A stretch of DNA of 64,000 nt from a virus (Duplodnaviria > Caudoviricetes): positions 126,299 through 190,298 of IMG/VR virus record IMGVR_UViG_3300037361_000044, one strand, 5' to 3'. The notes under the pieces were generated by a model, which saw only the letters and a program-made list of their open reading frames with translations, was not told where the DNA came from and made no database searches. A program made the position numbers and the translations under genes. Shown here piece after piece: positions 10,004 to 64,000 of this stretch. Positions within the stretch are counted from its first letter, which is position 1. Each line of letters starts with the position of its first letter.

Positions 10004-10050
10004 TAGGGGGCTAAGAGAAAAAGGGGTCTTGGCGGACCCCTTTCTCCTTT
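10003..10050. terminator. Terminator-like hairpin between convergent genes; on minus strand hairpin-TTTTTCTCT-TAGCCCCC
   Basis: AAAGGGGTC-TTGGCG-GACCCCTTT stem-loop. Confidence 0.8.
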
Positions 10051-10319: not shown

Positions 10320-11699
10320 TTATGCCACATCGTCTAGGAAGATGGTCTCGCCCCAATCTGCTGGAGCGCGTCTACGTGATCCAGGAACAATTCCCCAGAT
10401 GACGTTGATGCCACGCGGCTGCTCCTCGGGCGCTGTTCCGTCGCCATCGCTCAAGTAGATCACAGCATCTGGCTTCGGTCTGGCCTGCTCTGCCATCTCG
10501 AAGGCTGGGCAGAAGTCTGTACCCCCACGCCCCTTGATCTCCATGTGCTGCAGGTCCCTTATGGACACACGTGTTGGCGGTGTTTGTACTTTCGTGTCCG
10601 CCTCCATGTACCAGACGTTCATGACGCCGGTCTGCCGCATGACATCAACGCAGACGCGTAGCGCGTCACCCAGGTTCTGCTTCCCCATGGAGGCAGAGCT
10701 GTCGACTACGATCCATATTGTCGGCTCGTACGCGATCAGCCCAGGCCTTGGAAAGCCAACCAGTGTGGAGCGCTTTGAAGGTCTGCGCATGCTGTAGTCC
10801 AGGCCTCCTCTTTGGATGTTACCTACCAAGCTGCGTGTAGCTCTGCCGAGTTTTGCCACCCAGGGCACATGAAACACGGTGTCGCTGATTTCAACTATCT
10901 CGCTCCACGAGCCGGGCATGGTCCCGCGGCCCTCTCCTTCCATGTGCGCCTTTATTGCAGCCGCGGTGTCGCGTGCAAACTTGTGGCACTGCGTCTCTGA
11001 GTGCCCTATCCGATTGTCTTCTGACTTCTCCAATTCCTTTCTTAGCGGGTTGCCGGATACGCCACCGCAGCAGCCAGCCATGATCTTTCCCTGGTTTGGC
11101 TTTTCTCCGGGCTGCGGCGAGCTGCTGGAAGAACCCAGGCCTTGCCCAGGCTTCCCGGCACCGTTGCTGCCAGCAGCCTGTTTTTGGTGCTCCTTGGCCT
11201 CGTGCTTTTCCAGCAGGTGGTAGTACGCATCCGCAGTCAGCCCATCTTCGAATCCGTATTGAGACGGCATGAGCGCCCAGTCCGGGAATTCCCAAAGCGG
11301 CGCTTGCTTGATGACCTGGTTGCCGTTGTCCTTGGTGCGTATACTCCGCATTTGCTTGACCATCGTGCCGTTGATGAACAAGTCAGCTGCCCTGTTGTAA
11401 CGCTCGGGGTCTGCGTAGCTCTTTCCTCGGTTGATGTGATGCAGCAGCGCGTGCAGGCACTCATGCCCTAGCCCAGTGGCAAGTACAAGCACGCTTATCT
11501 CGTTGAGCCAGTCGGGCTCGTAGAGAAGTACTAGCCGCTCAGTAACTGCCAGCGGGCCACCCGCTATCTCAGTAAGGCCCACGTAGGGCCTTGGAATGAG
11601 GCCGTACAGGGTGGCCCCGAAGTACGGCGCTTGTAGTTTCACATAGGCTCGAGCCAGCGCAAGCTTATTGCTTGTTTTGTCCGATCCGACTTCTGCCAC
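10320..11699 (-). CDS. HExxH metallopeptidase plus vWA domain protein (DUF2201-like)
   Basis: GHECLHALLHH, N.AADLFIN, VVDSSASM, GRGGTDF, IYLSDG. Confidence 0.88.
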   Translation of the reverse strand: MAEVGSDKTSNKLALARAYVKLQAPYFGATLYGLIPRPYVGLTEIAGGPLAVTERLVLLYEPDWLNEISVLVLATGLGHECLHALLHHINRGKSYADPERYNRAADLFINGTMVKQMRSIRTKDNGNQVIKQAPLWEFPDWALMPSQYGFEDGLTADAYYHLLEKHEAKEHQKQAAGSNGAGKPGQGLGSSSSSPQPGEKPNQGKIMAGCCGGVSGNPLRKELEKSEDNRIGHSETQCHKFARDTAAAIKAHMEGEGRGTMPGSWSEIVEISDTVFHVPWVAKLGRATRSLVGNIQRGGLDYSMRRPSKRSTLVGFPRPGLIAYEPTIWIVVDSSASMGKQNLGDALRVCVDVMRQTGVMNVWYMEADTKVQTPPTRVSIRDLQHMEIKGRGGTDFCPAFEMAEQARPKPDAVIYLSDGDGTAPEEQPRGINVIWGIVPGSRRRAPADWGETIFLDDVA

Positions 11700-11700
11700 G

Positions 11701-12957
11701 TTAGGCCAGCTCTTTCAGGAAGTTCTGTACGCCGCTCTTGGATAGACGCACCAGTACAGGTCTCGCTGCAGCAACCACATCGCTGTTGCCGGAGTGCACA
11801 CCCAACTGGGCCTGGATAAGACCCTCCACGCAAGGCACAACAACGTCGGATAGCTGTGCGTCGAATAGCTGACCCAGGCTCTTCCACAGCAGCGGTGCCA
11901 CCTCTAGCTGCGCATCACGTGACGGTTTTTGCCGTACGTATGCTGTGGCGCTGTTGTACGCAGCTAGCACGATGTCCAGCCGGTGGGGGTTTACCTTCCA
12001 CTTGCCTGTGAGCACATCCATGGGTTTCGGTATGTCCGTTTCTGCTGCGTAGGTCATGAACATTGAGCCGGCCCCTTCGCCAACGCAGGAATACACCAAC
12101 GCTTCGCGGATACTGTCACCCTTATGTAGGATGCTCGCAGTAGTCCACGCCCGCATGGCGTAGTCCCACGTGCGTGGCGATGGCCAGCTTTTGCTGCTTT
12201 GCGGGTCGGACGGTGCCGGCATCTTGTGTAGTAGCGACGGATTGGCTTCCATGAATGCGGTGAACAAGCCTAGGGTCTCGGGAAAGATGGAAGGCCAATC
12301 CGAGATGACTACCTCTTCGATCTCAGCCAGGGTTGCTTGTAATCCCTCCAAGGTGTTGCCCATCTGGAAGGCGCTCCACTCACGCGCTGTTGGACCGGGG
12401 TCGGTCACGTGCATGAAGCGGTTGGCTAGTGGCGGGGAGAACCTGAAGCCCCCGGTGGCTATGTCCTCGGGGTTCGACGCCGCGAGCATTCGAATGCCCC
12501 CAGGAATGGGCTGGTCCCCAGCCACCCGTTCATGGATGAAGCTTTGGATGGCACCCTGTGTGGCAGGCGTGGCGCCGTTCACCTCGTCGAGAAAGATGAT
12601 GCCGCGCCCGACCTTGATGAGCTCGCGTACCTGAGAGAGCGGGCAGATCTGTCTGGCCCCTCCCTTACCATCCGGGATGAGCGCCCCGGAGAAGTCCTCG
12701 GGTGGATGCTGCGCTGCGAACAAAGACCTGGCACTGATGTGCAGTACCTTGCTCATCTGTTTGATGCGGGCGGTTTTGGCGTTGCCAGGTAGGCCTTCGA
12801 TAATGAGGGGCAACCCCCAGAGACAATCGTCGTGGCCAGGGTACCCGTCCATGGGGGAGGCCAAGGCCACCTCAACCAGCTCGTTTAGCTCTTTTCTCCC
12901 CAGCGGCATTGCGAGGGGATTGGTCAGCGCGGTTGTACTTGCTTTCTTAGTTGCCAT
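11701..12957 (-). CDS. MoxR-type AAA+ ATPase
   Basis: GLPGNAKT, IIFLDEVN, AASNP, PLANRF, PSPRTW; likely start ATG 12957. Confidence 0.88.
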   Translation of the reverse strand: MATKKASTTALTNPLAMPLGRKELNELVEVALASPMDGYPGHDDCLWGLPLIIEGLPGNAKTARIKQMSKVLHISARSLFAAQHPPEDFSGALIPDGKGGARQICPLSQVRELIKVGRGIIFLDEVNGATPATQGAIQSFIHERVAGDQPIPGGIRMLAASNPEDIATGGFRFSPPLANRFMHVTDPGPTAREWSAFQMGNTLEGLQATLAEIEEVVISDWPSIFPETLGLFTAFMEANPSLLHKMPAPSDPQSSKSWPSPRTWDYAMRAWTTASILHKGDSIREALVYSCVGEGAGSMFMTYAAETDIPKPMDVLTGKWKVNPHRLDIVLAAYNSATAYVRQKPSRDAQLEVAPLLWKSLGQLFDAQLSDVVVPCVEGLIQAQLGVHSGNSDVVAAARPVLVRLSKSGVQNFLKELA

Positions 12958-12958
12958 T

Positions 12959-13570
12959 CTATCCATCTCCAGCAGGCTTGTGACAGTCGCAGTTTCCGTG
13001 TCTCCAGCAGCGTTCGTAGAGACCATCCAGGCACACCTGTAGACCGGGCTTGGGCTCGAGTGGGGCTTCCCATAGGGGCTCGTCCCGTCCGTCTTCCATG
13101 TGCTTTAGACAGCCGATGCAGATGTGGTAGTCGTTCTGCATCTCCACGAACTTCGGGGTAGGTTCCCCGTTTGGCGCGCGCTCTGACCAGTGCATCTCAC
13201 CGAATTGCAAGATGGCCACGGTCTCGCCCAGCAGTACATCACTGCGGCAAGCATCGCACTCAATCACCCCGTCGTCATCTACTACGGGCGGAGCATCTTC
13301 TGTGAGCTCTCTTAGGTCTTCCAGCACCTCCTCGCCACAGTCGAAGCAGTAGAACGTTGGGTTGTACATGTAGTCGCCGTCTGCGCCCAACAGGTCCACA
13401 TGCTGCACCGTGGTCTTCGGCTGCACCGGCTGCACGACGCGTAGGAGGAATATCTCCTCGGTCATCATCAGTTCCGCACCGCAGTGGGCGCATACGACTC
13501 CGGCGCTCTCGTCCGTGTCTATCTCGTCTTCATCTTCTTCATCTTCTTCGTCGGTTACGTACGCAACCAC
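12959..13570 (-). CDS. Acidic multi-Cys, putative Zn-binding protein
   Basis: CAHC/CFDC and CDAC/CIGC pairs; acidic N-terminus. Confidence 0.7.
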   Translation of the reverse strand: MVAYVTDEEDEEDEDEIDTDESAGVVCAHCGAELMMTEEIFLLRVVQPVQPKTTVQHVDLLGADGDYMYNPTFYCFDCGEEVLEDLRELTEDAPPVVDDDGVIECDACRSDVLLGETVAILQFGEMHWSERAPNGEPTPKFVEMQNDYHICIGCLKHMEDGRDEPLWEAPLEPKPGLQVCLDGLYERCWRHGNCDCHKPAGDG

Positions 13571-14460: not shown

Positions 14461-14513
14461 CGCAGTTTTAGCGACCATGGACGCGGCGTCCGGCTATACT
14501 GCTCGGAGAGAGC

Positions 14514-17500
14514 ATGGCGTACCTGGATCCCAACGAGGCATTTGACCACTTCAGAGACCGAACTCTGGAGGCGATAGGGAAGCAATTCCCGGTCGACGGC
14601 ATCAATCAGGTGCTGAGCTTGGAGCGGCTTGAAGTACCTGACGAGCTAAGTCCGGATGATATTCGCAGTCAGCACCACGCCAAGGTGAACGGCCAGACGT
14701 GGGGTGTTCCAATCATCGCGCACCTGGCATTGACGAACAAGCAGACCGGGGAAGTGACGCGCTCCCGTACACGGATTGCTGAGCTGCCAAAGGTCACTGG
14801 TAGGCACAGCCACATCGTCAATGGGCAGGAGTACCAGGTAGACAACCAGTGGCAGCTCAAGCCCGGAGCCTACGTGCGGCGTCGGCAGACGGGGCAGATC
14901 GAGACCATGTTTCAGTCAAGCAAACGCCCGTCTTTCGACGTCACGTTTGACGACGCCTCCAAGGAGTTCAAGGCTGAGCTCCCCGGTGGTAAGGCTATTG
15001 TGCCGTTGTACCCGCTGCTGTCCGCGCTCGGCGTACATGACGACGAGTTGGAGAGGGCCTGGGGTAAGGACATCCTGCAGACCAACAAGAGCTCGCGCAA
15101 CGTGGCCGGCGCCGTGGCGCAGTACTACAAGACTACGAAGCGTGAGGAGCCCAAGAGCCACGAGGATGCAGTCAGGCACCTGGTCGACTCTCTGAAGCAG
15201 ACCGACCTACGTCCGGAGTCTACGGACATCACGCTGGGTAAGCCCATAGACCATGTGAACGGTGACGCATTGCTTAGGGCGACCAAGCGCATGCTGGCTG
15301 TACAACGGGGTGAGGCGCAGGACGACCGCGACTCGCTGGTATTCAAGGACCTGCGAAGCGTGGGTGATTTCTCTCACGACAAGATCATGGCGGCCAGCGG
15401 TGACATCCGCAGGAAGATGCAGCGCAAGATCAATAAGGCGACGAGCCCGCGGGATGTGGTCCCGTTCGAGGCGTTCAACAAGCCTATCCGTGAGACGTTC
15501 TTCAAGAACTCCGCGGCGCAGGTGGCTAAGCAAATCAACCCGGTGGAGATGGTCTCTACCGCGCAGCAGACCACAGTGATGGGCCCCGGCGGCATCCAGT
15601 CAGAGCAGCAGATTCTGGATGAGGTGAAGTTCGTAAACGCTTCCCACATGGGATTCCTGGACCCCATTCACACGCCAGAGGGCAGCAAGACTGGTGTGAC
15701 GCTGCGTATGCCAATCAGCGTCACCCAGCACGGTCACGAGCCTAGGATACCCCTGTACAACATGCGTACGGGCAAGACCGAGCAGGTTGGTCCCGCTACG
15801 TTCCTCCGGTCGAAAGTGGTCCTACCAGATCAGGTGACGTGGGACGGCGACAAGCCAGTGGCTAAGTATCCTGCGGTGAAGTGGTCTACCACAGGCAATG
15901 AAGTTGCCGATGGCCATCTCAAGGATGCGGACTACGTGATGAAGCACTCCTCGCAGTTCTTCAACATCACTAGCAATCTCATCCCGTTCGTCAACAATAC
16001 GTCTGGTGGCCGTGCGTCTATGGCCACACGACACATGGAGCAGTCCATTTCCTTGCTGCACCGTGAAGCCCCCATGGTGCAGGTGGGCACCGGCAGTAGT
16101 ACGGCAGGTAGCCGTACGTTCGAGGAGATCATTGGTTCACAGGCGTCGCATCGGTCTCCGGTGTCGGGCACGGTGAAGGCTGTGAAGCACGATGCCGTGG
16201 TGGTGACTGACCACTTGGGCAAGGACCACGAGGTTCAGGTCTACCGCAATTACCCGCTGAATGACGCGAAGTCGGTACTCGACTCCACCATTCTGGTGAA
16301 GCCCGGCGACAAGGTGAAAGCCTCGCAGGTGGTGGCCGACACAAACTTCTCGCGTAATGGCACCATCGCGCTGGGTACAAACCTGCGCGTCGGCTACATC
16401 CCCTACAAGGGGTACAACTTCGAGGATGGTGTAGTCATCAGCGAGAGCGCCGCCAAGAAGCTGAGTAGTGTGCACTTGTACAAGCACAAGGTCGGTGTTG
16501 ATGACGATACGGTCCTAGCCAAGCGGCACTACATGACACAGCACCCTGGTCTGTACAGTAGGGATCAGTTCTCCAAGATAGGCGACAACGGTTTGGCCGT
16601 GGTCGGTTCGAAGGTGCAGCCTGGAGACCCCCTTGTACTGTCCATGAAGAAGGCCGTCGTGAAGGACAGGACTGGTCTGTCCGCTATTCGCAAGAGCTTG
16701 GGAGAGACCTACTCGGATAGATCTTTGACCTGGGAGGGTGAAGGACCTGGCGAGGTTGTAAGCTCGTTCAAGAAGGATGGGGAAGTCGTTGTCCACGTGC
16801 GCGCGGTAGAGCCCATGCAAGTGGGTGACAAGATGGCGGGGCGCTATGGTAACAAAGGCATCGTCACCAAGATCGTGCCCGACCACGAGATGCCACATAC
16901 CCCAGACGGGCGGCATATCGAGGTGGCGCTAAACCCCTCCGGCGTTCCCGGCCGCATGAACATTGGGCAGGTGCTTGAGACTGCCGCAAGCAAGATTGCG
17001 GAGAAGACAGGTAAGCCCTACGTTGTGCAGAACTTCGATGGCACGAACCAGCTGGAGACCATTCAGGCGGAGTTGAAGAAGCACGGCATTAGCGACGTAG
17101 AAGACCTGTACGACCCGATGAACAAGCAGAAGTTGGGATCGGCGCTGGTAGGCAACCAGCACATGATCAAGCTGCACCATCAAGTCGACAAGAAGGTGTC
17201 GGTACGCTCTGGGCTCAACTTGCCAGGCGGCGGCGTAGAGAAGTACAACTCCAACCTGCAGCCCACAGGCGGTGGTCATTCTGGTGGGCAGTCCATGGAC
17301 CCGCTAGGGTTGTACTCGCTACTGGCGCACGGCGCTCGAGCGAACATCCGAGAGATGCAGACATGGAAAAGCGAAGGACCGGACATGTCTGCCTCCGCCG
17401 CAAAGCAGTGGCAGAGTCAGCATCACGATGTGTGGGATGCCATTCAGCACGGTGACCCGTTGCCAACTCCCAAGCCTACATTCGCCTTCAAGAAGTTCAC

Positions 17501-20500
17501 GGACATGCTGACGGGTGCTGGCATCAACATCGAGAAGCACGGGCACGAGTTTGTGCTTACGCCACTCACCAATCAGCAGATCCATGCGTTGACGGGTGAC
17601 CGTGTGCTGCCGAAGCCCGCTGAGCTGCTCTATGCCAAGCCCGATCCCAAGACGGGTGAGCCCCGCCCAAAGCCAGGTGGGTTATTCGACGAGCGGTTGA
17701 CCGGTGGGCACGGCGGCAAGAAGTGGAGTCGAATGACTTTGGCAGAGCCGGTACCGAATCCGGTGTTTGCCGAGTCCATTCGAATGCTGGCTGGGTTATC
17801 GAACGAGCACTACACCGGGCTGGTACATGGCACGCATGTACTGGGCGCGGACGGCAAGGTTGTACCTATGGGCCCCGGTATTACTGGGCAGGCCGGTGGT
17901 GCTGCCGTCGAAACCCTGCTGCACAAGGTGGACATCGACAAGGATTTGGCCGCCGCGCGCAAAGCCTTGGATACGCTTCCTGCATCCAAGGTCGACAAGA
18001 CTTTGAAGAAGGTGAAGCGGCTACAGGCGTTGAAGGACGCAGGACTTGGTGCAGCGGAGGCGTACATACTGCACTCGCTGCCTATTGTCCCTCCGGCGAT
18101 GCGCCCCATCACCGTAATGCATGACGGTAGCTTCAAGTTTGATGATATCAACCAGCTGTATTCTCAGTTAGCGCAGAACAACAGCCAGCTGCAGGACCCC
18201 ACGCTGCGTGACAACCTGCTACCCGAGCGCCGTAGGGACCTACGCAGGGACTTGTACGACGGGGTTGGCGCCGTCATGGGCGTAGGCGTTCCGTATGCGG
18301 ATGCTGCGCACAAGGGCTTGATTCACCAGATCCAAGGGGCGGCTCCGAAGACTGGTTACTTCCAGAGCACGCTCATCAGCCGCAAGCAGGACTTGAGCAT
18401 GCGCTCCACGATTGTCCCGGAACCAGCCCTGTCCCTGGACGAGATCGGGCTGCCCAAGGAACACGCTATGAAGCTGTTCTCCCCCTTCGTGGTAGGCGAG
18501 CTGCGCAAGTCTGGCATGGCACTGAACGTGGCTGACGCGCAGAGCATGGTGGCGAAGAACGCGCCAGCGGCTCAGCGGGCATTGCAGCGGGTGATGACGG
18601 ATCGTCCTGTGCTCTTGAAGCGTGATCCGGCCCTGCACAAGTACAGCGTACAGGCGTTCAAGCCGCGAGTGGTGGACGGTAACGCCATCAAGATTCATCC
18701 GCTAGTGACCGGCGGGTACAACGCGGACTTTGACGGCGACACCATGAGCGTGTTCGTACCTATCGGGCAGGACGCGGTGGCGGAGGCGCACAAGATGCTG
18801 CCCTCGAACAACTTGTTCAGCGAGGCTACAGGGAAGGTCATGTACCAACCCACCCTCGAGTCGGCGCTAGGGTTGTACAAGCTGTCGCGGGTCACTGACG
18901 CCAAGGTTCACCATGTGCAGCACCCAGCTGATGCCATCAAACTCGTGCAGACGGGCAAGCTGTCCGTCAACGACAGGGTGCAGTATGGGGGCCAGGTGAC
19001 CACCACTGGTCGCATTCTGATGGCAGCAGCGCTACCTGAGCCCATGCAGCAGTCCATTCTAGGAGACCTGCATAAAAGCCTGGATAAGAAGGGCCTCGAC
19101 ACGCTGCTGACGCAGGTGGCTCGGGAGCATTCCGGGGACTACGGCTCTGTAGCAGACAAGCTGAAGGACATTGGCAACGGTGCCGCTAGTGGCGTCGTGA
19201 CGGTGGAGCACAACAACTACACTGGAGACCACCGGTTGGACCCCCAGAAGCGGACGTATGTGCCAGTCGGGGTTCACACGTTGGCTCTGTCCGACTTCAC
19301 CCCGGACATCGCTACGCGCGAGCATGTGTTGGCTCCTGTCCGCGTGGAGGTTGCCAAGATCAAGGGCAGCAGCATGACGCAGTACGCCAAGGACGCGGCA
19401 ACCGTGCGTGCCTGGTCAGCGGCAGACCAGCAGATGCAGAAGGACCACATGGCGAAGGCCACAGACAAGCCCTCGAACCTCATGACAATGCACTTGGCTG
19501 GCGTGAAGCCAGGCTGGGGGCAGTACAAGCAACTAACCCTCGCTCCGATGCTGGTGGCAGACGCATCAGGCCGCACTATCCCCGTGCCAATCACCAAGAG
19601 CTACGCAGAGGGGCTGGACACGGGGGACTACTGGAACCAGATGCACGGGGCCCGTCGAGGGGCTGTGATGAAGGTCCAGGAAGTCCGTGAACCTGGTTAC
19701 CTGTCGAAGCTGCTCATGGCCAACACCATGGACATGGTCGTCAATGGGGAGGATTGTGGTACCACGCGTGGCATTGCGCTGCCGGTCACAGACTCGGATG
19801 TGCATGACCGCATCCTGCAGAAGGACTTCAGCGTAAAGGGCGTGCACATCCCTGCCGGCACGATGCTGACGCCAAACCTGGTGTCTCGCATGCGTGCGGT
19901 GAGTCCCCGCGAGCAGATTGTGGTGCGGAGTCCGTTGAAGTGCGAGCACGCGAAGGGGGTTTGCCAGAAGTGCATGGGACTGTCATCGGACGGGAACATG
20001 CATCAGATCGGCGAGAACATCGGTGTGTCAGCCGCGCAGTCGCTGGGGGAGCGCGCAGTGCAGCTGACTATGCGTGTGTTCCACACAGGCGGCACGGTGG
20101 ATACCGGGGGTGGCTCCAAGGTGCTTGGGGAGTTTGACCGGTTGAATCAGCTCATGATGCTGCCAAAGCACATTGCCGATTCGTCCACACTTGCCATGCA
20201 CACGGGCACCATCGAGAAGATAGAGCCCACGGCGACCGGCGTCACCGTCTACATCTCCGGCAAGAAGCACCACGTGGGCAAGGACGCCAAGGGCGCCCCG
20301 CTGTGGAAACCTCTCGTGGACGCGGCCCCTGGCTGGGCTCCGCCAAAGGTGGGGATGCAGGTTACCAAGGGGCAGGTGTTGAGCGATCCATTGCGTACTC
20401 TGGTGAACCCACACGACCTGTACAAGGCCACTGGCAACATGGAGACCGTCCAGAACTACTTGGCGGACCAGGTGCATGCTCTGTACAAGGGTGAGGGCAT

Positions 20501-20915
20501 CAAGCGCAAGCACGTGGAGACCGTGGTGAAGGCCATGAGCAACCTCACCAAGATCGAGGCGGCTGGGGATTACCCAGGTGTCCTCCGCGGGGAGTTTCAT
20601 CCGACTTCTAAGATTGCCGCGCTGAACAGGGAGCTCATCCGGGCTGGAAAGACGCCCATCGAGCACAAGCCTGTACTGAAGGGGGTGGACATCATGCCGC
20701 TTTCGGTGCAGGAAGACTGGATGGCCAAGATGCAGCACATCCGGTTGAGCAAGACCCTGCTCGACGCGGCGGCCACGGGTGGTACATCGAACATCCACAG
20801 CTTGCACCCTATCCCCGGCATGGCCTACGGCGCTGAATTCGGTCTGAATCAGGAGCACGCCAAGAAGCGTCTGGCTTTGTCGCACCTACATGACGTGAAG
20901 GGACACGAGTACTGA
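14514..20915 (+). CDS. rpoBC: Phage DNA-directed RNA polymerase, single-chain beta-beta' fusion
   Basis: beta: MGPGG, HTPEG, GYNFEDG, GDKMAGRYGNKG, LNPSGVPGRMNIGQ; beta': LKRDPALH, YNADFDGD, HGARRG, QLTMRVFHTGG; one uninterrupted ORF. Confidence 0.96.
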   Translation: MAYLDPNEAFDHFRDRTLEAIGKQFPVDGINQVLSLERLEVPDELSPDDIRSQHHAKVNGQTWGVPIIAHLALTNKQTGEVTRSRTRIAELPKVTGRHSHIVNGQEYQVDNQWQLKPGAYVRRRQTGQIETMFQSSKRPSFDVTFDDASKEFKAELPGGKAIVPLYPLLSALGVHDDELERAWGKDILQTNKSSRNVAGAVAQYYKTTKREEPKSHEDAVRHLVDSLKQTDLRPESTDITLGKPIDHVNGDALLRATKRMLAVQRGEAQDDRDSLVFKDLRSVGDFSHDKIMAASGDIRRKMQRKINKATSPRDVVPFEAFNKPIRETFFKNSAAQVAKQINPVEMVSTAQQTTVMGPGGIQSEQQILDEVKFVNASHMGFLDPIHTPEGSKTGVTLRMPISVTQHGHEPRIPLYNMRTGKTEQVGPATFLRSKVVLPDQVTWDGDKPVAKYPAVKWSTTGNEVADGHLKDADYVMKHSSQFFNITSNLIPFVNNTSGGRASMATRHMEQSISLLHREAPMVQVGTGSSTAGSRTFEEIIGSQASHRSPVSGTVKAVKHDAVVVTDHLGKDHEVQVYRNYPLNDAKSVLDSTILVKPGDKVKASQVVADTNFSRNGTIALGTNLRVGYIPYKGYNFEDGVVISESAAKKLSSVHLYKHKVGVDDDTVLAKRHYMTQHPGLYSRDQFSKIGDNGLAVVGSKVQPGDPLVLSMKKAVVKDRTGLSAIRKSLGETYSDRSLTWEGEGPGEVVSSFKKDGEVVVHVRAVEPMQVGDKMAGRYGNKGIVTKIVPDHEMPHTPDGRHIEVALNPSGVPGRMNIGQVLETAASKIAEKTGKPYVVQNFDGTNQLETIQAELKKHGISDVEDLYDPMNKQKLGSALVGNQHMIKLHHQVDKKVSVRSGLNLPGGGVEKYNSNLQPTGGGHSGGQSMDPLGLYSLLAHGARANIREMQTWKSEGPDMSASAAKQWQSQHHDVWDAIQHGDPLPTPKPTFAFKKFTDMLTGAGINIEKHGHEFVLTPLTNQQIHALTGDRVLPKPAELLYAKPDPKTGEPRPKPGGLFDERLTGGHGGKKWSRMTLAEPVPNPVFAESIRMLAGLSNEHYTGLVHGTHVLGADGKVVPMGPGITGQAGGAAVETLLHKVDIDKDLAAARKALDTLPASKVDKTLKKVKRLQALKDAGLGAAEAYILHSLPIVPPAMRPITVMHDGSFKFDDINQLYSQLAQNNSQLQDPTLRDNLLPERRRDLRRDLYDGVGAVMGVGVPYADAAHKGLIHQIQGAAPKTGYFQSTLISRKQDLSMRSTIVPEPALSLDEIGLPKEHAMKLFSPFVVGELRKSGMALNVADAQSMVAKNAPAAQRALQRVMTDRPVLLKRDPALHKYSVQAFKPRVVDGNAIKIHPLVTGGYNADFDGDTMSVFVPIGQDAVAEAHKMLPSNNLFSEATGKVMYQPTLESALGLYKLSRVTDAKVHHVQHPADAIKLVQTGKLSVNDRVQYGGQVTTTGRILMAAALPEPMQQSILGDLHKSLDKKGLDTLLTQVAREHSGDYGSVADKLKDIGNGAASGVVTVEHNNYTGDHRLDPQKRTYVPVGVHTLALSDFTPDIATREHVLAPVRVEVAKIKGSSMTQYAKDAATVRAWSAADQQMQKDHMAKATDKPSNLMTMHLAGVKPGWGQYKQLTLAPMLVADASGRTIPVPITKSYAEGLDTGDYWNQMHGARRGAVMKVQEVREPGYLSKLLMANTMDMVVNGEDCGTTRGIALPVTDSDVHDRILQKDFSVKGVHIPAGTMLTPNLVSRMRAVSPREQIVVRSPLKCEHAKGVCQKCMGLSSDGNMHQIGENIGVSAAQSLGERAVQLTMRVFHTGGTVDTGGGSKVLGEFDRLNQLMMLPKHIADSSTLAMHTGTIEKIEPTATGVTVYISGKKHHVGKDAKGAPLWKPLVDAAPGWAPPKVGMQVTKGQVLSDPLRTLVNPHDLYKATGNMETVQNYLADQVHALYKGEGIKRKHVETVVKAMSNLTKIEAAGDYPGVLRGEFHPTSKIAALNRELIRAGKTPIEHKPVLKGVDIMPLSVQEDWMAKMQHIRLSKTLLDAAATGGTSNIHSLHPIPGMAYGAEFGLNQEHAKKRLALSHLHDVKGHEY

Positions 20916-27294: not shown

Positions 27295-29130
27295 ATGGCT
27301 GCCGCTGAAAGGTTTACTGAGGACTACTCGGAGCACCCGGACGACTCTGGTGCAGAGGGTACCCCACTTTCTGATGAAGAGCTACAACGCCTGGCCGAGC
27401 TCGATAGGTGGGTGCCGGAGGCCGAGGAGTACTTGGACCTCTGCACGGATGACGACCCGTACAAGTTCCTCCGGGACGGTGACGCTCCGGTAATCCTCCC
27501 GTCTAGCTTCACTGAGTACGCCTTCTGGATGCCCACGAGCAACGGCTACGAGCAGTTCTCGTTCGAGGGGCGTCATCATCTGCGGCAGGTCTACGACACC
27601 CCACGGCGTCGTGTATTGCTCATGTGCGGTCGTCAGGTCGAGAAGTCCACACTTCTTGGCAACAGGGCTTTGGCCTTGGGGTGTCTCATCCCCGCCTACA
27701 AGACCCTTTATGTTAGCCCCTCGGCAACGCAAACCAAGACGTTCTCTAACGACCGTGTGAAGGATCCTATCGAGACCAGCCCTGTGCTGCGGGCCTTCAC
27801 GAACCGCATGCTGTCGCAGAACGTTTTCGAGAAGCAGTTCATCAACCGCTCGAAGATCACACTGCGTTACGCCTTCCTCAACGCTGACCGCGCGCGCGGT
27901 ATCCCAGCCAACCAGCTCCTCATCGACGAAATCCAGGACATCCTATCGGACAACATCCCGGTCATCGAGCAGTGCTTGTTCCACTCCCCCGAGGAGCTGA
28001 AGCGGTTCGTCTACTCAGGGACGCCCAAGACCCTGGACAACGTGATCGAGGATTATTGGAGCAACCGTTCCACGCAGAACCAGTGGGTGGTGCCCTGTGA
28101 CTGCACGGGCGGGGAAGCGGGCCGTTACTGGAACATCCTTGGCGAGAAGAACATCGGCAAGAAGCACCTGATCTGCGAGCACTGCGGCAAGCAGATCTTT
28201 CCAATGGGTCCAGCCTCACAGTGGGCCAGCGCCGTGGAGTACGACCCGGTTCATACGCCCTTCGAGGGGTACCGCATCCCCCAGCTCATGGTCCCGTGGC
28301 TGGACTACAACGAGCTGCTCTACAACTACAACAGCTACTCCCGCAACAAGTTCTACAACGAGACGTTGGGTATTTCCTTCGATAGCGGGTTGCGGCCGCT
28401 CACGAAAGCGCAGGTTCGCTCGAATTGCATCGAGACCATTCACATGGCGGATGCGGACAAGTACCAGAAGCTGTCCTTCAGCCAGCCTATCTTTGCTGGA
28501 ATCGACTGGGGCACAGGCGAGAACACGTACACGGTGCTCTCCCTGGGCATGTACATTCGGAACAAGTTTCGGATCTTCTATGTGCACAGGTTCACAGGAG
28601 AGGACATCGAGCCAGATCGGCAGCAGGAGAAGATTCGAGATATTCTACGCACGTTCAATGTGCGCATCATCGGCGCCGACTATGGTGGCGGCTACTATCC
28701 CAACGACTACTTGACCCGCCAGTTTGGCCCAGACCGGCTGATGAAGTACCAGTACGTGGCCAGGCTCACGTCGAAAGTACGCTGGGAGAACAAGTTGCGG
28801 CGTTGGATGGTGCACCGCTCAGAGGTGATGAGTGCCATCTTCAATGCCATCAAGCGTGGCAATGTATTTGAGTTTCCACGTTGGGCTGAGTTCAATGACC
28901 CGTACGGCCAGGACATGCTCAACATCTTCAGCGAATACAACGAGAAGCTGCGCATGATTCAGTACGGGCACACCGCAGGAAAGACGGACGATACATTTCA
29001 CTCCATCCTGTACTGCTTCCTGGCTTCCATGGTCATGCGTCCACGCCCGGACATCATCGCCCCTGGCAAGGAGGCCGAGGGGGTTGGCCCCGTCTGGAGT
29101 TCGTACTCGGGGCCTGTTGACCAGGGTTGA
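27295..29130 (+). CDS. terL: Terminase large subunit (lambda gpA-like)
   Basis: GRQVEKST Walker A variant, LLIDEIQD, YSGTP, CDC/CEHC, FAGIDWG nuclease motif, DDTFHS. Confidence 0.92.
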   Translation: MAAAERFTEDYSEHPDDSGAEGTPLSDEELQRLAELDRWVPEAEEYLDLCTDDDPYKFLRDGDAPVILPSSFTEYAFWMPTSNGYEQFSFEGRHHLRQVYDTPRRRVLLMCGRQVEKSTLLGNRALALGCLIPAYKTLYVSPSATQTKTFSNDRVKDPIETSPVLRAFTNRMLSQNVFEKQFINRSKITLRYAFLNADRARGIPANQLLIDEIQDILSDNIPVIEQCLFHSPEELKRFVYSGTPKTLDNVIEDYWSNRSTQNQWVVPCDCTGGEAGRYWNILGEKNIGKKHLICEHCGKQIFPMGPASQWASAVEYDPVHTPFEGYRIPQLMVPWLDYNELLYNYNSYSRNKFYNETLGISFDSGLRPLTKAQVRSNCIETIHMADADKYQKLSFSQPIFAGIDWGTGENTYTVLSLGMYIRNKFRIFYVHRFTGEDIEPDRQQEKIRDILRTFNVRIIGADYGGGYYPNDYLTRQFGPDRLMKYQYVARLTSKVRWENKLRRWMVHRSEVMSAIFNAIKRGNVFEFPRWAEFNDPYGQDMLNIFSEYNEKLRMIQYGHTAGKTDDTFHSILYCFLASMVMRPRPDIIAPGKEAEGVGPVWSSYSGPVDQG

Positions 29131-29880: not shown

Positions 29881-30146
29881 CACTCAGCCGCGCGCCGCGT
29901 CTTCAGCGCTTTCTCTACTTCGTCGTAGCCCAGCACCACTGGCCAGGCGACAGCTGAGAAGCCAATGAGTCCAATAAACGCAGCGTTGGCCACGATTGCC
30001 AGCTGCCGTTCGGATAGCGGGTTGTCCTCTGTCACCGCGGCAATGAGCACGTCGGCAGTCCAGCGTGATCGTTTTACTTCTTGGTAGGCGTTGTAACCAA
30101 CTACTGCACCCATCGCTACGTAGGCTGTTGTCAATAGAAAGCTCAT
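29880..30146 (-). CDS. Small two-TM membrane protein
   Basis: Two hydrophobic segments; GGAGG RBS. Confidence 0.72.
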   Translation of the reverse strand: MSFLLTTAYVAMGAVVGYNAYQEVKRSRWTADVLIAAVTEDNPLSERQLAIVANAAFIGLIGFSAVAWPVVLGYDEVEKALKTRRAAE

Positions 30147-30907
30147 GGCGTTCCTCCACTACTCTCCTTATCCCCGAAATCGTCGTGGATTTGAGACAAC
30201 GCCAAGGAAATTCTTCGAGGGTAGAGTTGGGAGATGACCTCGTCGGTCACGGCCTTATCCACGAATAGGGCATCGGCCATGCGCTGACCACGTCTCTCCA
30301 GCACGTAGAAATAGGCCACGTGCCGCAGGCTTTTACGAGCAGCCTCGAGGCACGAGTAAGCAAAGGGTAGACTCATGTCACGCAACTTGCTTGGGCGGTC
30401 CGCCAAGCGATTGGCGAGTTGCATGTAGATCTCCCAAGGACTCGAGTAGTCCGTGATGTCCTCCAGCAGCCGCAGGTAGGACTCGTCTATTGCGTTGATA
30501 ATGGTGGCCCACTCCAGAATCTGGTCGGCGGGCACCCGGCTTAGATCCGACAACAGCAGCTCGTACGCCTGCGCGTGGATCTGGAACATGCTTTCCTGCT
30601 CATAGGCCAGGCGCCTGTTGTCCAGCCCCAGCAGCTGGCAGAGCATGGAGAGCCGGTCGGCGACTGAGCTACTGAGGGCCGCGGCCTGCCTGGCTAGGTG
30701 CGCCACGGATGGCATGTCCATGGTCCGTCCGCGCAGTTCGAGTATTGCCCGGATGTCGGCGGGGTCGTAGAGGGAGTCGATGACGTGCTTCCCGCGGAAA
30801 GCTGGGCGCAGCTTGCCTTGGCGAACCAGTGCGGTGAGCCAGCGGGGGGTTACACCCAGCTGCTTGGCTGCAGCCTTGTGCGTGAGTAGCTTAGGATTCC
30901 TTCCCAT
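30143..30907 (-). CDS. HTH (excisionase/MerR-like) DNA-binding protein
   Basis: LLTHKAAAKQLGVTPRWLTALVRQGKL...YDPADI; likely start ATG 30907. Confidence 0.75.
   Translation of the reverse strand: MGRNPKLLTHKAAAKQLGVTPRWLTALVRQGKLRPAFRGKHVIDSLYDPADIRAILELRGRTMDMPSVAHLARQAAALSSSVADRLSMLCQLLGLDNRRLAYEQESMFQIHAQAYELLLSDLSRVPADQILEWATIINAIDESYLRLLEDITDYSSPWEIYMQLANRLADRPSKLRDMSLPFAYSCLEAARKSLRHVAYFYVLERRGQRMADALFVDKAVTDEVISQLYPRRISLALSQIHDDFGDKESSGGTP
30167..30193 (-). promoter_or_regulatory. Putative phage promoter CAA-N19-ATAAG
   Basis: Minus strand CAAATCCACGACGATTTCGGGGATAAG, 20 nt upstream of the 30146 start. Confidence 0.6.
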
Positions 30908-37883: not shown

Positions 37884-39005
37884 ATGGCTGTTCCGGCGAG
37901 TGTATTGAACGACCTCTTTGCTTCGAAGCTCAATAGCAACGATGGCAAGGAAAAGATCGCCGAGTATGGTGGTAGCTACATCCGTGACCGCCTCCGCGAG
38001 GTGAGCTTTGCTCGCAAAGTCATCCCGCCGGAGCAGGTCACGCGTGCTGACTGCCAGCGCTCGGTAAACCACGACACCCTGGTCAAGATCATCGACATCG
38101 AGCCTAAGAGCCGAGCAATGTCGATTACCTTCCGGGGGCAACCCGAGGCTCGCTTCATTCGAGGCGACCGTGCGGAGATTGCATTCTTCACCATCAGCTC
38201 TGAGATGTTCCAAAAGACGGAGCAAGAGCTGCTGGCCTACGAGATGCCCATCACCAAGATCATCGAAGAGAATTCGGTGAAGGACATCCAGGAGATCGAG
38301 GACCGTGAGTTCACGATCCACATCGAGGCTGCTGTGCAGGCTCTCCAGACCGAGGCGAACGGTGGAACCCCCGCTGCTCTCCACTACGGTACGGTTGGTC
38401 AAGGCGCTGTCGAGTTCTCCGTCCGTAAGGGCGAGCTCGCACGCAACGCCACTGCCAACTCGGCAGAGGTACTCCCAGTCAGCCGCGTCGACATCGTCAA
38501 CCTGTTCAAGATGGTGGACGGGAACCGACTCCGTGCAGAGCGTCTGCTCATGACCGAGGTCGATTGGGACGATATCCTCTCCTGGACGGTGGAAGACTTC
38601 GGTGACCGTATTCAGTCGGAAACGACTGTCGACGGTTACAAGTACAACACGCTCTTGGGCAAGGCGTACATCCGTACCATCAAGACGGACATCCTTCGTC
38701 CCGGTAACATCTACGCGTTCACCAAGCCGGAGTTCTTCGGGAAGTTCTACGTACTGAACAACACGAAGTTCTACATCGACAAGATCGCCAACACGATCAC
38801 CTTCCAGGCTTGGGAAGACATCGGGATGTCGGTCATCAACATTGCGTCGGTTCGAAAGCTCGAGCTCTACTCGGGTGACGCCAACCCGACGACGGATGCG
38901 GATGACCTCCTGGACAACTTCATCCCACGGTCCGAGGAAGCCTTGGGCGCAGTCAATAACAGGGTTGACGCAGGGTTGAAATTTCCTCAGGTATCGCAAT
39001 ACTGA
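37884..39005 (+). CDS. mcp: Major capsid protein (HK97 fold)
   Basis: AAGGAGA RBS, strong codon bias, IRDRLREVSFARKVIPP, KDIQEIEDREF, EFFGKFYVL, WEDIGMSVIN; canonical position. Confidence 0.85.
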   Translation: MAVPASVLNDLFASKLNSNDGKEKIAEYGGSYIRDRLREVSFARKVIPPEQVTRADCQRSVNHDTLVKIIDIEPKSRAMSITFRGQPEARFIRGDRAEIAFFTISSEMFQKTEQELLAYEMPITKIIEENSVKDIQEIEDREFTIHIEAAVQALQTEANGGTPAALHYGTVGQGAVEFSVRKGELARNATANSAEVLPVSRVDIVNLFKMVDGNRLRAERLLMTEVDWDDILSWTVEDFGDRIQSETTVDGYKYNTLLGKAYIRTIKTDILRPGNIYAFTKPEFFGKFYVLNNTKFYIDKIANTITFQAWEDIGMSVINIASVRKLELYSGDANPTTDADDLLDNFIPRSEEALGAVNNRVDAGLKFPQVSQY

Positions 39006-63244: not shown

Positions 63245-64000
63245 ATGGCGAAACGAGAAGATAACGGGAGTATCGTGAGTCCGGGAGGTCCCGGTATCCC
63301 ACCTACGACCGTAGTACGGGATGCCAGACAGCCCACGCGGCTGGGCTCCGATCCCCTGCAACCCCCTGCCCCGTTCGTGGACCCTTCGCGAACAGGAGAC
63401 CCTGTGGCCTTGCGCTACGCCCAAGCTGCGGAGCAACGCAGACGCGGGCAACTGCCGCTGCCCAAGTACACAACGCCGGTGGCAGGTGGCCCGGACGTGC
63501 CCATCCCAATGCTGAACGAGCAGGCGGCAGAGGGCTCCACCATGGCGGCTCAGGCGCTGATGCAGCGTGGGTCTGCGCCCATGCCTGCGCCGAATCTGAA
63601 TGGCTTGGTCAGCAGCCTGGGCAATGAGCCTGCACTGCGAACCGGCGGTATCGTGGATGGGACTGCGCACCAAGAGATGCCACAGGCTGCACGTAGCGGT
63701 GGTCTGCATGTACCTCCTGGGTTGATGCCTTCGGACATGCTGCCGGAGGAAGCCACTAGGGACCCGGCGTTCCAGCAAGGGCACGGTTCCATGTTTGCCG
63801 TGAATCAGCCAGGTCTGGCTGCCAAGTACGGGGTGATGCGTGGAAAGGATCGGCTTATGCCGCAGCAGCTAGCCTCGGCGCAGCCACGCCCTAGCGGCGC
63901 ATCGGCTGGTGGTGCCAAGCTAAGTGCAGACACGGTGGAGGGATTGAAGGCCTTGCAACGGCTCGAGGCCGAGAGGCAGCAACAGGCCACGGCAGCCACC
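63245..64000 (+). CDS. Pro/Gly-rich hypothetical protein, truncated by the window end (MAKREDNGSIVSPGG...)
   Basis: Manual translation; AGGAG upstream; open to 64000. Confidence 0.7.
   Translation, partial: MAKREDNGSIVSPGGPGIPPTTVVRDARQPTRLGSDPLQPPAPFVDPSRTGDPVALRYAQAAEQRRRGQLPLPKYTTPVAGGPDVPIPMLNEQAAEGSTMAAQALMQRGSAPMPAPNLNGLVSSLGNEPALRTGGIVDGTAHQEMPQAARSGGLHVPPGLMPSDMLPEEATRDPAFQQGHGSMFAVNQPGLAAKYGVMRGKDRLMPQQLASAQPRPSGASAGGAKLSADTVEGLKALQRLEAERQQQATAAT

Follow-up and report, generated by a model that had tools for sequence, protein, structure and literature searches.

Loss of the beta' N-terminal zinc-binding domain and altered clamp helices in a single-chain RNA polymerase from a phage clade

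The DNA analysed here, a 64-kb window forming the final part of the 190,298-bp IMG/VR virus record IMGVR_UViG_3300037361_000044 (CheckV completeness 100%), contains a gene for a single-chain beta-beta' RNA polymerase. This gene (14514..20915, plus strand, as are all its features; positions are those of the window unless the genome is named) encodes a protein of 2133 amino acids, P0001, and was recognised by open reading frame (ORF) translation and by comparison with Pfam, the NCBIfam rpoB/rpoC models and the PDB. The Pfam domains Rpb2_3 and Rpb2_6 of beta are followed by Rpb1_1, Rpb1_2 and Rpb1_5 of beta', and the last 1134 residues matched bacterial beta' chains of the PDB with an E-value of about 1e-103 (HMMER). 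When the family profile was aligned globally with a profile of bacterial beta' (hhalign), the approximate beta/beta' junction, which corresponds to residue 1 of bacterial beta', was placed at residues about 992-1004 (17487..17525). The catalytic NADFDGD motif is intact (residues 1403-1409, 18720..18740; translation and HMMER) and identifies, together with the Rpb1_2 match (E 3.9e-29), a double-psi beta-barrel. When P0001 was compared with the TIGR02386 (RpoC) model, a score of 466 bits was obtained, under the cut-off of 963.5, and the match began at profile position 159.

The N-terminal zinc-binding domain, which is conserved in the bacterial beta' sequences compared, is absent from P0001. In bacteria, this domain is bracketed by the beta' region-A motif, which in P0001 runs from GGLFD to LAEPVPNPVF (GGLFDERLTGGHGGKKWSRMTLAEPVPNPVF, residues 1055-1085, 17676..17768; MAFFT, hhalign and AlphaFold2 model). 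Where about 31 zinc-domain residues (E. coli beta' ~69-99) would be, P0001 has the loop TGGHGG (residues 1063-1068, 17700..17717; MAFFT, hhalign and a bacterial comparison with gaps at 64-78 and 83-99). Full-length alignment by MAFFT of P0001, two cultured relatives and a Salmonella RpoC (which came from a contaminant among the phage records and is numbered identically to that of E. coli) opened a 32-column gap over ~E69-R99, so that the four cysteines of the E. coli domain (C70, C72, C85 and C88) fall in the gap and are missing from P0001. On either side of it, GGLFDERLTGG was paired with DGLFCARIFGP and KKWSRMTLAEP with ERMGHIELASP. The same gap was obtained when a profile built from 57 family members was compared globally, by hhalign, with a beta' profile of four bacterial/phage sequences (probability 99.9, E 2.5e-34). 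HMMER local alignments (PDB chains, TIGR02386) begin only at about beta' residue 140-170 and are blind to the zinc domain; since they miss the first ~140 residues of beta', the absence of the domain rests on MAFFT, hhalign and the AlphaFold2 model.

In this model (residues 920-1519, mean predicted local distance difference test, pLDDT, of 74), a short helix at FDER is followed by the loop TGGHGG and by a strand at KWSRMTLAEP. The motif lies at model residues 136-161, and block-mean pLDDT values across model residues 131-160 were 83, 71 and 92. Structure alignment by VIA-align superposed model residues 91-600 onto E. coli beta' 17-595 (Z about 22, ~465 residues aligned, root-mean-square deviation about 17 A); the aligned span counts 510 residues in the model versus 579 in E. 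coli beta'. The second beta' zinc site, equivalent to E. coli C814, C888, C895 and C898, is present, as DCGT (residues 1747-1750) and PLKC...CQKC (residues 1807-1820; together 19749..19973), as established by HMMER alignment to the Thermus site. Across the family, DCG[TS] was found in 102/120 sequences and Cx(4-8)CxxC in 116/120. The original prediction, made by eye on 17660-18270 (P0001 residues ~1050-1253), had proposed that the N-terminal domain was cleanly deleted and that the second site was kept; both proposals were borne out, the former by two alignment methods and the model, the latter by the Thermus comparison.

The distribution of the deletion was followed in the homologues of P0001. 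A word-index search gave 120 of them, nearly all of about 2130 amino acids, 52-93% identical to P0001 and carried by contigs of up to about 200 kb. The CxC...CxxC pattern upstream of the clamp helix was present in none of the 120, and 112 were devoid of any cysteine in the first 130 beta' residues. In addition, when residues 992-1200 served as the query of an exhaustive phmmer search, 744 clusters (50% identity) were retrieved at E <= 1e-10. Among the best 150, the counterpart of residues 1051-1089 was recovered for 146 cluster representatives; its length is 39 +/- a few residues, and it contains no cysteine (0/146). In both sets, the region-A motif is conserved and the replacement loop is conserved as TGG-x-x-G. 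The split polymerases of Salmonella phage Arash and Vibrio phage D69 show the same deletion, whereas the beta' subunits of Rhizobium phage RHph_Y65 and Cobetia phage Carin-5 retain all four zinc cysteines. Because of this partition, the loss of the zinc domain is, judged from these sequences, a trait of the P0001 clade and not of phage polymerases generally.

Two other features of the family were observed. Many of its polymerases reach 2400-4700 amino acids (up to 4739) because they are interrupted by inteins with LAGLIDADG domains (PF14528, PF14890), for instance P0019, P0021, P0024, P0026, P0031, P0032 and P0039; several of these inteins lie within the 1000-1500 region. Furthermore, a six-residue Lys/Pro-rich insertion, PDPKTG, stands just before GGLFD in the beta' zipper region (17640-17675, residues ~1043-1054). 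Insertions of this type occur in the fused family, Arash, D69 and E. coli being without them.

In E. coli, the polymerase deprived of the zinc domain transcribes normally from lacUV5 in vitro with sigma70 and loses activity with sigma28, in whose complex the spacer is contacted at -26/-25 by K74 and K87 of the domain (bioRxiv 10.1101/2020.01.02.893370). As judged from the lacUV5 activity of this enzyme, the domain is dispensable for catalysis. Its loss in the phage clade could represent a neutral streamlining which leaves promoter use, pausing and termination unaffected. P0001 is ~600 residues shorter than E. coli beta and beta' summed and shows further clean deletions (beta 10-32, beta' 127-151, beta' 558-570 and part of the rudder), the E. 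coli deletion enzyme is active on a strong promoter, and canonical hairpin and U-tract terminators occur in the phage genome (see below). However, the domain could not be removed from the E. coli chromosome (bioRxiv 10.1101/2020.01.02.893370) and it was kept in the RHph_Y65 and Carin-5 lineages. Moreover, few universally conserved modules are missing from P0001: in the comparison with three bacteria, including the insertion-poor Staphylococcus, the three deletions cited above were the only other clean losses of at least 12 shared residues. Finally, the conservation of the TGG-x-x-G loop points to selection on the new shape. Taking both sides together, we regard neutral streamlining as somewhat unlikely. 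As regards position, the beta 10-32 deletion sits near P0001 beta residues ~7-8, and the rudder is ~7 residues shorter (equivalents of E. coli beta' 312-317) at 18297-18310, residues ~1262-1266.

The clamp helices, which follow the zinc-domain region, were then compared residue by residue. Clamp helix 1 is DINQLYSQLAQNNSQLQ (residues 1211-1227, 18144..18194), and HMMER, MAFFT and hhalign agree in pairing DINQLYSQLAQNNSQL with DLNDLYRRVINRNNRL. In this register, R270 is replaced by S1217, R271 by Q1218, R275 by N1222 and R278 by Q1225. The four arginines had been reported lost in the original prediction, a reading that a proper alignment might have overturned; none of the three methods restored any of them. 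In clamp helix 2 (residues 1238-1256, 18225..18281; family alignment of 120), E295 is replaced by L1243, Q300 by Y1248 and A302 by G1250. These replacements are conserved in the family: the R270 position is S in 95/120 sequences, the R275 position is V, I or N and the R278 position Q or K, and in helix 2 the equivalents of E295, Q300 and A302 are L in 102/120, Y in 119/120 and G in 120/120, respectively. The coiled-coil itself is present in the AlphaFold2 model, with helices at model residues 292-308 and 318-336.

The published contact residues between core and sigma70 are R275, E295 and A302 of beta' and positions 403, 406, 407 and 409 of sigma70 (PMC8321222), and P0001 has N, L and G at the three beta' positions. 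According to PMC8321222 (citing Arthur/Young), the E. coli single mutants R275Q, E295K and A302D are impaired in holoenzyme formation. The beta' clamp helices of P0001 thus present a rebuilt sigma-docking surface, on which host sigma70 may plausibly no longer dock.

When the whole genome was scanned with Pfam Sigma70_r2, it revealed a FliA-like protein of the sigma70 family, P0003 (256 amino acids; genome 26952-27719), encoded outside the window, 98.6 kb upstream of it and 113 kb from the polymerase gene. Sigma regions 2, 3 and 4 follow one another in this protein; region 3 passes its Pfam threshold (Sigma70_r3, 42.2 bits for a cut-off of 25.3), and regions 2 and 4 taken singly are under theirs. 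The top NCBIfam models were FliA/WhiG (E 1.4e-11), SigB/F/G and RpoD, all under their curated cut-offs. Since the FliA/WhiG score was 44.6 bits for a cut-off of 189.6, P0003 is a distant group 3 member and not an equivalog. Profile matches in the PDB (FliA, SigF and SigB) extend over its full length, and hhalign with E. coli FliA gave 96.9% probability over residues 45-253. Homologues of P0003 form 86 clusters. In six of these clusters, the longest contig and the longest one of a polymerase homologue are exactly equal in length (193017, 193847, 187857, 198155, 200070 and 137885 bp), and therefore the sigma and polymerase homologues are very likely carried by the same contigs. P0003 is also an orthologue of Arash gp10 (35% identity, E 2e-29), which was found at 100% coverage in purified Arash virions with the polymerase proteins gp206, the most abundant protein, and gp216 (PMC10585845).

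In the original prediction, the polymerase was supposed to use no host sigma factor. The part of this proposal that concerns the altered sigma70 docking site is retained, whereas sigma independence of P0001 is very unlikely, because the genome encodes a conserved FliA-like sigma factor which a co-fold docks on the altered clamp helices. The helix-turn-helix protein encoded at 30143..30907, which had been put forward as a candidate partner, matched HTH_17, MerR and excisionase models only; it is not sigma-like and was rejected.

The sigma side of the interface was examined with the E. coli rpoD numbering, in which DLIQEGN starts at 403; hhalign pairs phage H79 with G411, and the correspondence was extended ungapped along the helix. 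The equivalents of sigma70 D403, Q406, E407 and N409 are then A71, A74, E75 and T77 of P0003, so that only the Glu of the region 2.2 core-binding residues is retained. E. coli FliA has D and Q at the D403 and Q406 positions, like sigma70. In the phage sigma family, Ala71 is found in 83/86 members, Ala74 in 75/86 and Glu75 in 81/86. The changes are thus reciprocal: the equivalents of R275 and R278 became N/V/I and Q/K in the polymerase, and those of D403 and Q406 became Ala in the sigma factor.

To these data was added one co-fold of P0001 residues 1049-1339 with sigma residues 20-130, a family alignment being supplied for each. The score was 0.83, versus 0.21 for the best of three controls; in the benchmark, the mark was reached by 58/80 solved complexes and 2/110 mismatched pairs. 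The runs share at least 70% of their contacts, and the partner pLDDT is at least 81. In the predicted interface, P0001 residues 1213-1246, from both clamp helices, face sigma residues 39-48, 66-82 and 113-117. The positions of R270, R271, R275, R278 and E295 belong to this interface, in which Q1225 would contact A71, A74 and E75, and N1222 would contact A71 and A74. As a sigma factor and clamp helices form a textbook pair, the score makes the canonical docking mode plausible and is not a proof of docking. Independent support for the pairing comes from the reciprocal and conserved replacement of residues on both sides. Covariation over seven polymerase/sigma pairs was uninformative because the interface residues barely vary.

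In the light of these results, a second explanation, according to which P0001 continues to work with a sigma factor of the host, either sigma70 or an alternative one, and the clamp substitutions are drift in a fast-evolving viral protein, appears improbable. It agrees with the retention of the coiled-coil fold and of its hydrophobic face, and with a TATACT box 13 nt 5' of the polymerase start codon (14495-14513), from which the mRNA would be nearly leaderless. However, the replaced positions are conserved in the family and are not drifting, either R275Q or E295K alone is enough to impair sigma70 binding in E. coli (PMC8321222), and a dedicated sigma factor co-occurs with the polymerase and carries matching changes.

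Phage-encoded sigma factors acting on the host core, such as T4 gp55 and SPO1 gp28, are common. The distance of 113 kb between the two genes would also suit a P0003 that redirects the host core, the phage polymerase using another unrecognised factor or none; we consider this the least probable explanation, since P0003 is without the D403 and Q406 equivalents that both sigma70 and FliA use on host clamp helices, the co-fold with the phage clamp helices far exceeded its controls, and the orthologous sigma factor and polymerase of Arash are both abundant in virions (PMC10585845).

Putative promoters of the phage enzyme were found as GGNATAAG, which is present in 29 copies in the genome for 7.1 +/- 3.0 expected from Markov simulations. 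Six copies are in the window, at 1140(-), 10297(-), 30174(-), 50479(+), 58726(-) and 63861(-), and 23 elsewhere in the genome. An ORF starts within 120 nt downstream of 25/29 copies. Around them, an A is found 17 nt upstream in 26/29, within a GCAA box, a T at +13 in 21/29 and a purine at +14 in 26/29. With ATAA as the anchor, the motif is (-34)GCAA(-31), N16, (-14)GGSATAAG(-7), N6, (+1)R. The elements recognised by sigma28 are TCTAAAG (-36 to -30) and GCCGATAA (-15 to -8) (PMC12784957). The phage motif thus has the register of sigma28 promoters and would fit a FliA-like sigma factor.

Sites made of a hairpin, a T-tract and TAGCC(C) were also enriched: 43 were counted genome-wide, 23 of them with a strong hairpin, versus 6-24 sites, 3-10 with a strong hairpin, for eight control pentamers. 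In the window, such TAGCC-tailed terminators are located at 10022(-), 15534(-), 27707(+), 29857(-) and 51348(+). The TAGCC tail is unusual and conserved; several of these terminators end short promoter-gene-terminator cassettes. A terminator on the same strand follows within 3 kb for 14/29 promoter motifs and within 1 kb for 9/29. The altered termination rules that had been thought possible for this enzyme are unsupported, because, if the phage holoenzyme reads the GGNATAAG promoters, it is stopped by ordinary hairpin and U-tract signals.

Taken together, the data lead us to favour, as the probable reading, a slimmed single-chain core without the zinc domain, whose clamp helices pair with the phage FliA-like sigma factor and which uses sigma28-like promoters. 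In such a scheme, P0001 is a slimmed core of the bacterial type, and its rebuilt clamp-helix surface would fit P0003 in place of host sigma70. The two-protein holoenzyme would read (-34)GCAA-N16-(-14)GG(G/C)ATAAG-N6-(+1)purine, that is GCAA-N16-GGGATAAG with transcription predicted to start 7 nt past the octamer, before non-structural genes, and would stop at hairpin and U-tract terminators. By analogy with Arash, both polymerase and sigma factor would probably be carried in the virion. The zinc domain itself was lost once, at the base of a large clade. A long 8-bp -10 element together with a sigma factor of its own would make the non-specific contacts of the domain with spacer DNA and in the exit channel expendable, and the loss would also remove a surface used by host regulators.

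Several points weigh against this proposal. As the zinc domain of E. coli specifically aids sigma28-type initiation, a FliA-like sigma factor is unexpected on an enzyme without it. The long 8-bp -10 element and the conserved replacement loop could compensate for the lost domain, and the PDPKTG insertion near the zipper may make up for the spacer contact that was lost with it. On the clamp helices, the hydrophobic core of the interface is retained (positions of L268, Y269, N276, L279, L299, V303 and A305); the exclusion of host sigma factors is deduced from residues only, and the co-fold score may reflect likeness to solved holoenzymes and not the affinity of P0001 for P0003. Similarly, the assignment of the promoters to the sigma factor rests on resemblance between motifs. 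There is no GGNATAAG promoter at the polymerase gene itself; as this gene has the TATACT box instead, another polymerase or factor may transcribe it. Arash, at about 30% identity, is the one phage for which packaging in the virion is known, and it could be transposed to the present phage by analogy. Finally, no homologue of the alpha N-terminal domain (PF01000, PF01193) or of omega (PF01192) was found in the genome by searches whose controls matched 14/14 genomes.

A bolder proposal, which we put forward tentatively and hold to be possible at best, is that core and small sigma factor form a complete two-protein machine, acting without alpha, omega or host sigma factor, delivered by the virion and made orthogonal to the host by the recoded interface between clamp helices and region 2.2. 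If true, this would be the simplest known sigma-dependent polymerase of the multisubunit type and a natural orthogonal core/sigma pair, and the loss of the zinc domain would free the enzyme from host controls that use this domain (Rho, antitermination RNAs or proteins). The paired changes in clamp helices and region 2.2 illustrate a way in which a viral holoenzyme could be shielded from the sigma factors of the host, and a compact pair of two genes, about 2400 codons together, could serve as an orthogonal expression system. In addition, a large natural clade, in which at least 744 clusters at 50% identity match the module and all 146 representatives checked are without the cysteines, constitutes a natural experiment that would address the role of the zinc domain when promoters open, when RNA exits and at termination. 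Three points are new: the zinc domain is missing throughout the clade, as opposed to other phage lineages; clamp helices and sigma region 2.2 are reciprocally recoded; and a link to sigma28-like promoters is proposed. In the searched text of the lineage papers PMC7481178 and PMC10585845, neither zinc-domain loss nor clamp/sigma changes are mentioned.

Within beta, a candidate flap-tip helix, GLSAIRKSLGE (residues 721-731, 16674..16706), where sigma region 4 would be expected to dock, was proposed by eye from its resemblance to the E. coli flap tip. The polymerase gene has virion and packaging genes as neighbours, among them those of the large terminase (27295..29130, matching PF05876) and of the major head protein (37884..39005, matching phrog_2522). 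The latter was the only match when PHROGs was searched with ten ORFs near the polymerase, and megablast of the polymerase gene against phage records gave none. At 10320-13026 (-), upstream of the polymerase gene and divergent from it, are encoded an AAA_5 (MoxR-like) ATPase and a DUF2201 metallopeptidase/VWA protein. The same pair adjoins a polymerase copy in the 13.6-Mb chromosome of the myxobacterium Pendulispora rubella (CP089983.1, 9190428-9216565), where the gene order is shared with the phage locus: DUF2201 peptidase, AAA_5 ATPase, a fused polymerase of 2045 amino acids and ORFs of 414, 209 and 671 amino acids. This polymerase is 56% identical to P0001 across residues 1000-1500, and ordinary bacterial genes follow within ~6 kb. 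The copy resembles a relative that has integrated or decayed, a hint that the phage may have hosts among the Myxococcota. With regard to the ends of the record, ~80 nt around the GGCATAAG copies at 63861(-) of the window and at genome position 62(-) are identical save one base, which points to a direct repeat at the termini or to circular permutation of the assembly.

Among known systems, the closest are those of Arash (gp206 and gp216, with sigma factor gp10; PMC10585845) and of the Vibrio phages D69, D148 and D181, which belong to the same clade at ~30% identity over 97% of the length. Arash and D69 share with P0001 the absence of the zinc domain and divergent clamp helices, and the Arash type has in addition an orthologous sigma factor and a polymerase located among virion genes. 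They differ in that their enzyme is split into beta plus N-terminal beta' (about 1525 amino acids) and C-terminal beta' (about 606 amino acids), whereas P0001 is a single polypeptide. A further sigma factor, gp196, is annotated in Arash, and no homologue of it was detected in the present genome.

With bacterial RpoC and the sigma28 (FliA) holoenzyme, the phage proteins share the fold (Z about 22 to the beta' of E. coli, Thermus and others), the catalytic motif, the second zinc site, the clamp coiled-coil, regions 2 to 4 of P0003 and a promoter motif in the sigma28 register. Unlike RpoC, P0001 is without the four-cysteine zinc domain and without R270, R271, R275, R278 and E295; its beta and beta' are fused, and alpha and omega were not found in the genome. 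The fused RpoBC proteins of Helicobacter and Wolbachia also have beta followed by beta' in one polypeptide, and are not known to have lost the zinc domain. Their models NF007172 and NF011417 were the top-scoring NCBIfam entries for P0001; however, the scores of 519 and 444 bits are far under the cut-offs of 5372 and 4632, those fusions being full-size cellular enzymes.

As in the multimeric-RNAP-encoding Caudovirales (mReC, PMC7481178), RHph_Y65, Carin-5 and Yersinia phage YerA41, the phage beta and beta' are recognisable with cellular profiles, and the present genome is that of a caudovirus with terminase and capsid genes in the window, as for mReC. Most mReC have capsid PF07068 and terminase PF03237 (Weinheimer & Aylward 2020, PMC7481178), versus capsid phrog_2522 and terminase PF05876 here. 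RHph_Y65 and Carin-5 differ by their four zinc cysteines and their separate subunits; in Carin-5, a sigma gene adjoins the polymerase genes.

The non-virion RNA polymerases of phiKZ and AR9 are also phage enzymes of the multisubunit type; they function without alpha or omega, and carry a promoter-specificity subunit on the clamp helices (PMC7618050, in whose searched text no statement on the zinc domain was found). In these enzymes, beta and beta' are divided into four highly divergent pieces, and the fifth subunit, which is remotely sigma-like, stays attached (PMC7618050). In contrast, the phage studied here encodes its core in one ORF, and the predicted partner of this core is an ordinary group-3-like sigma factor.

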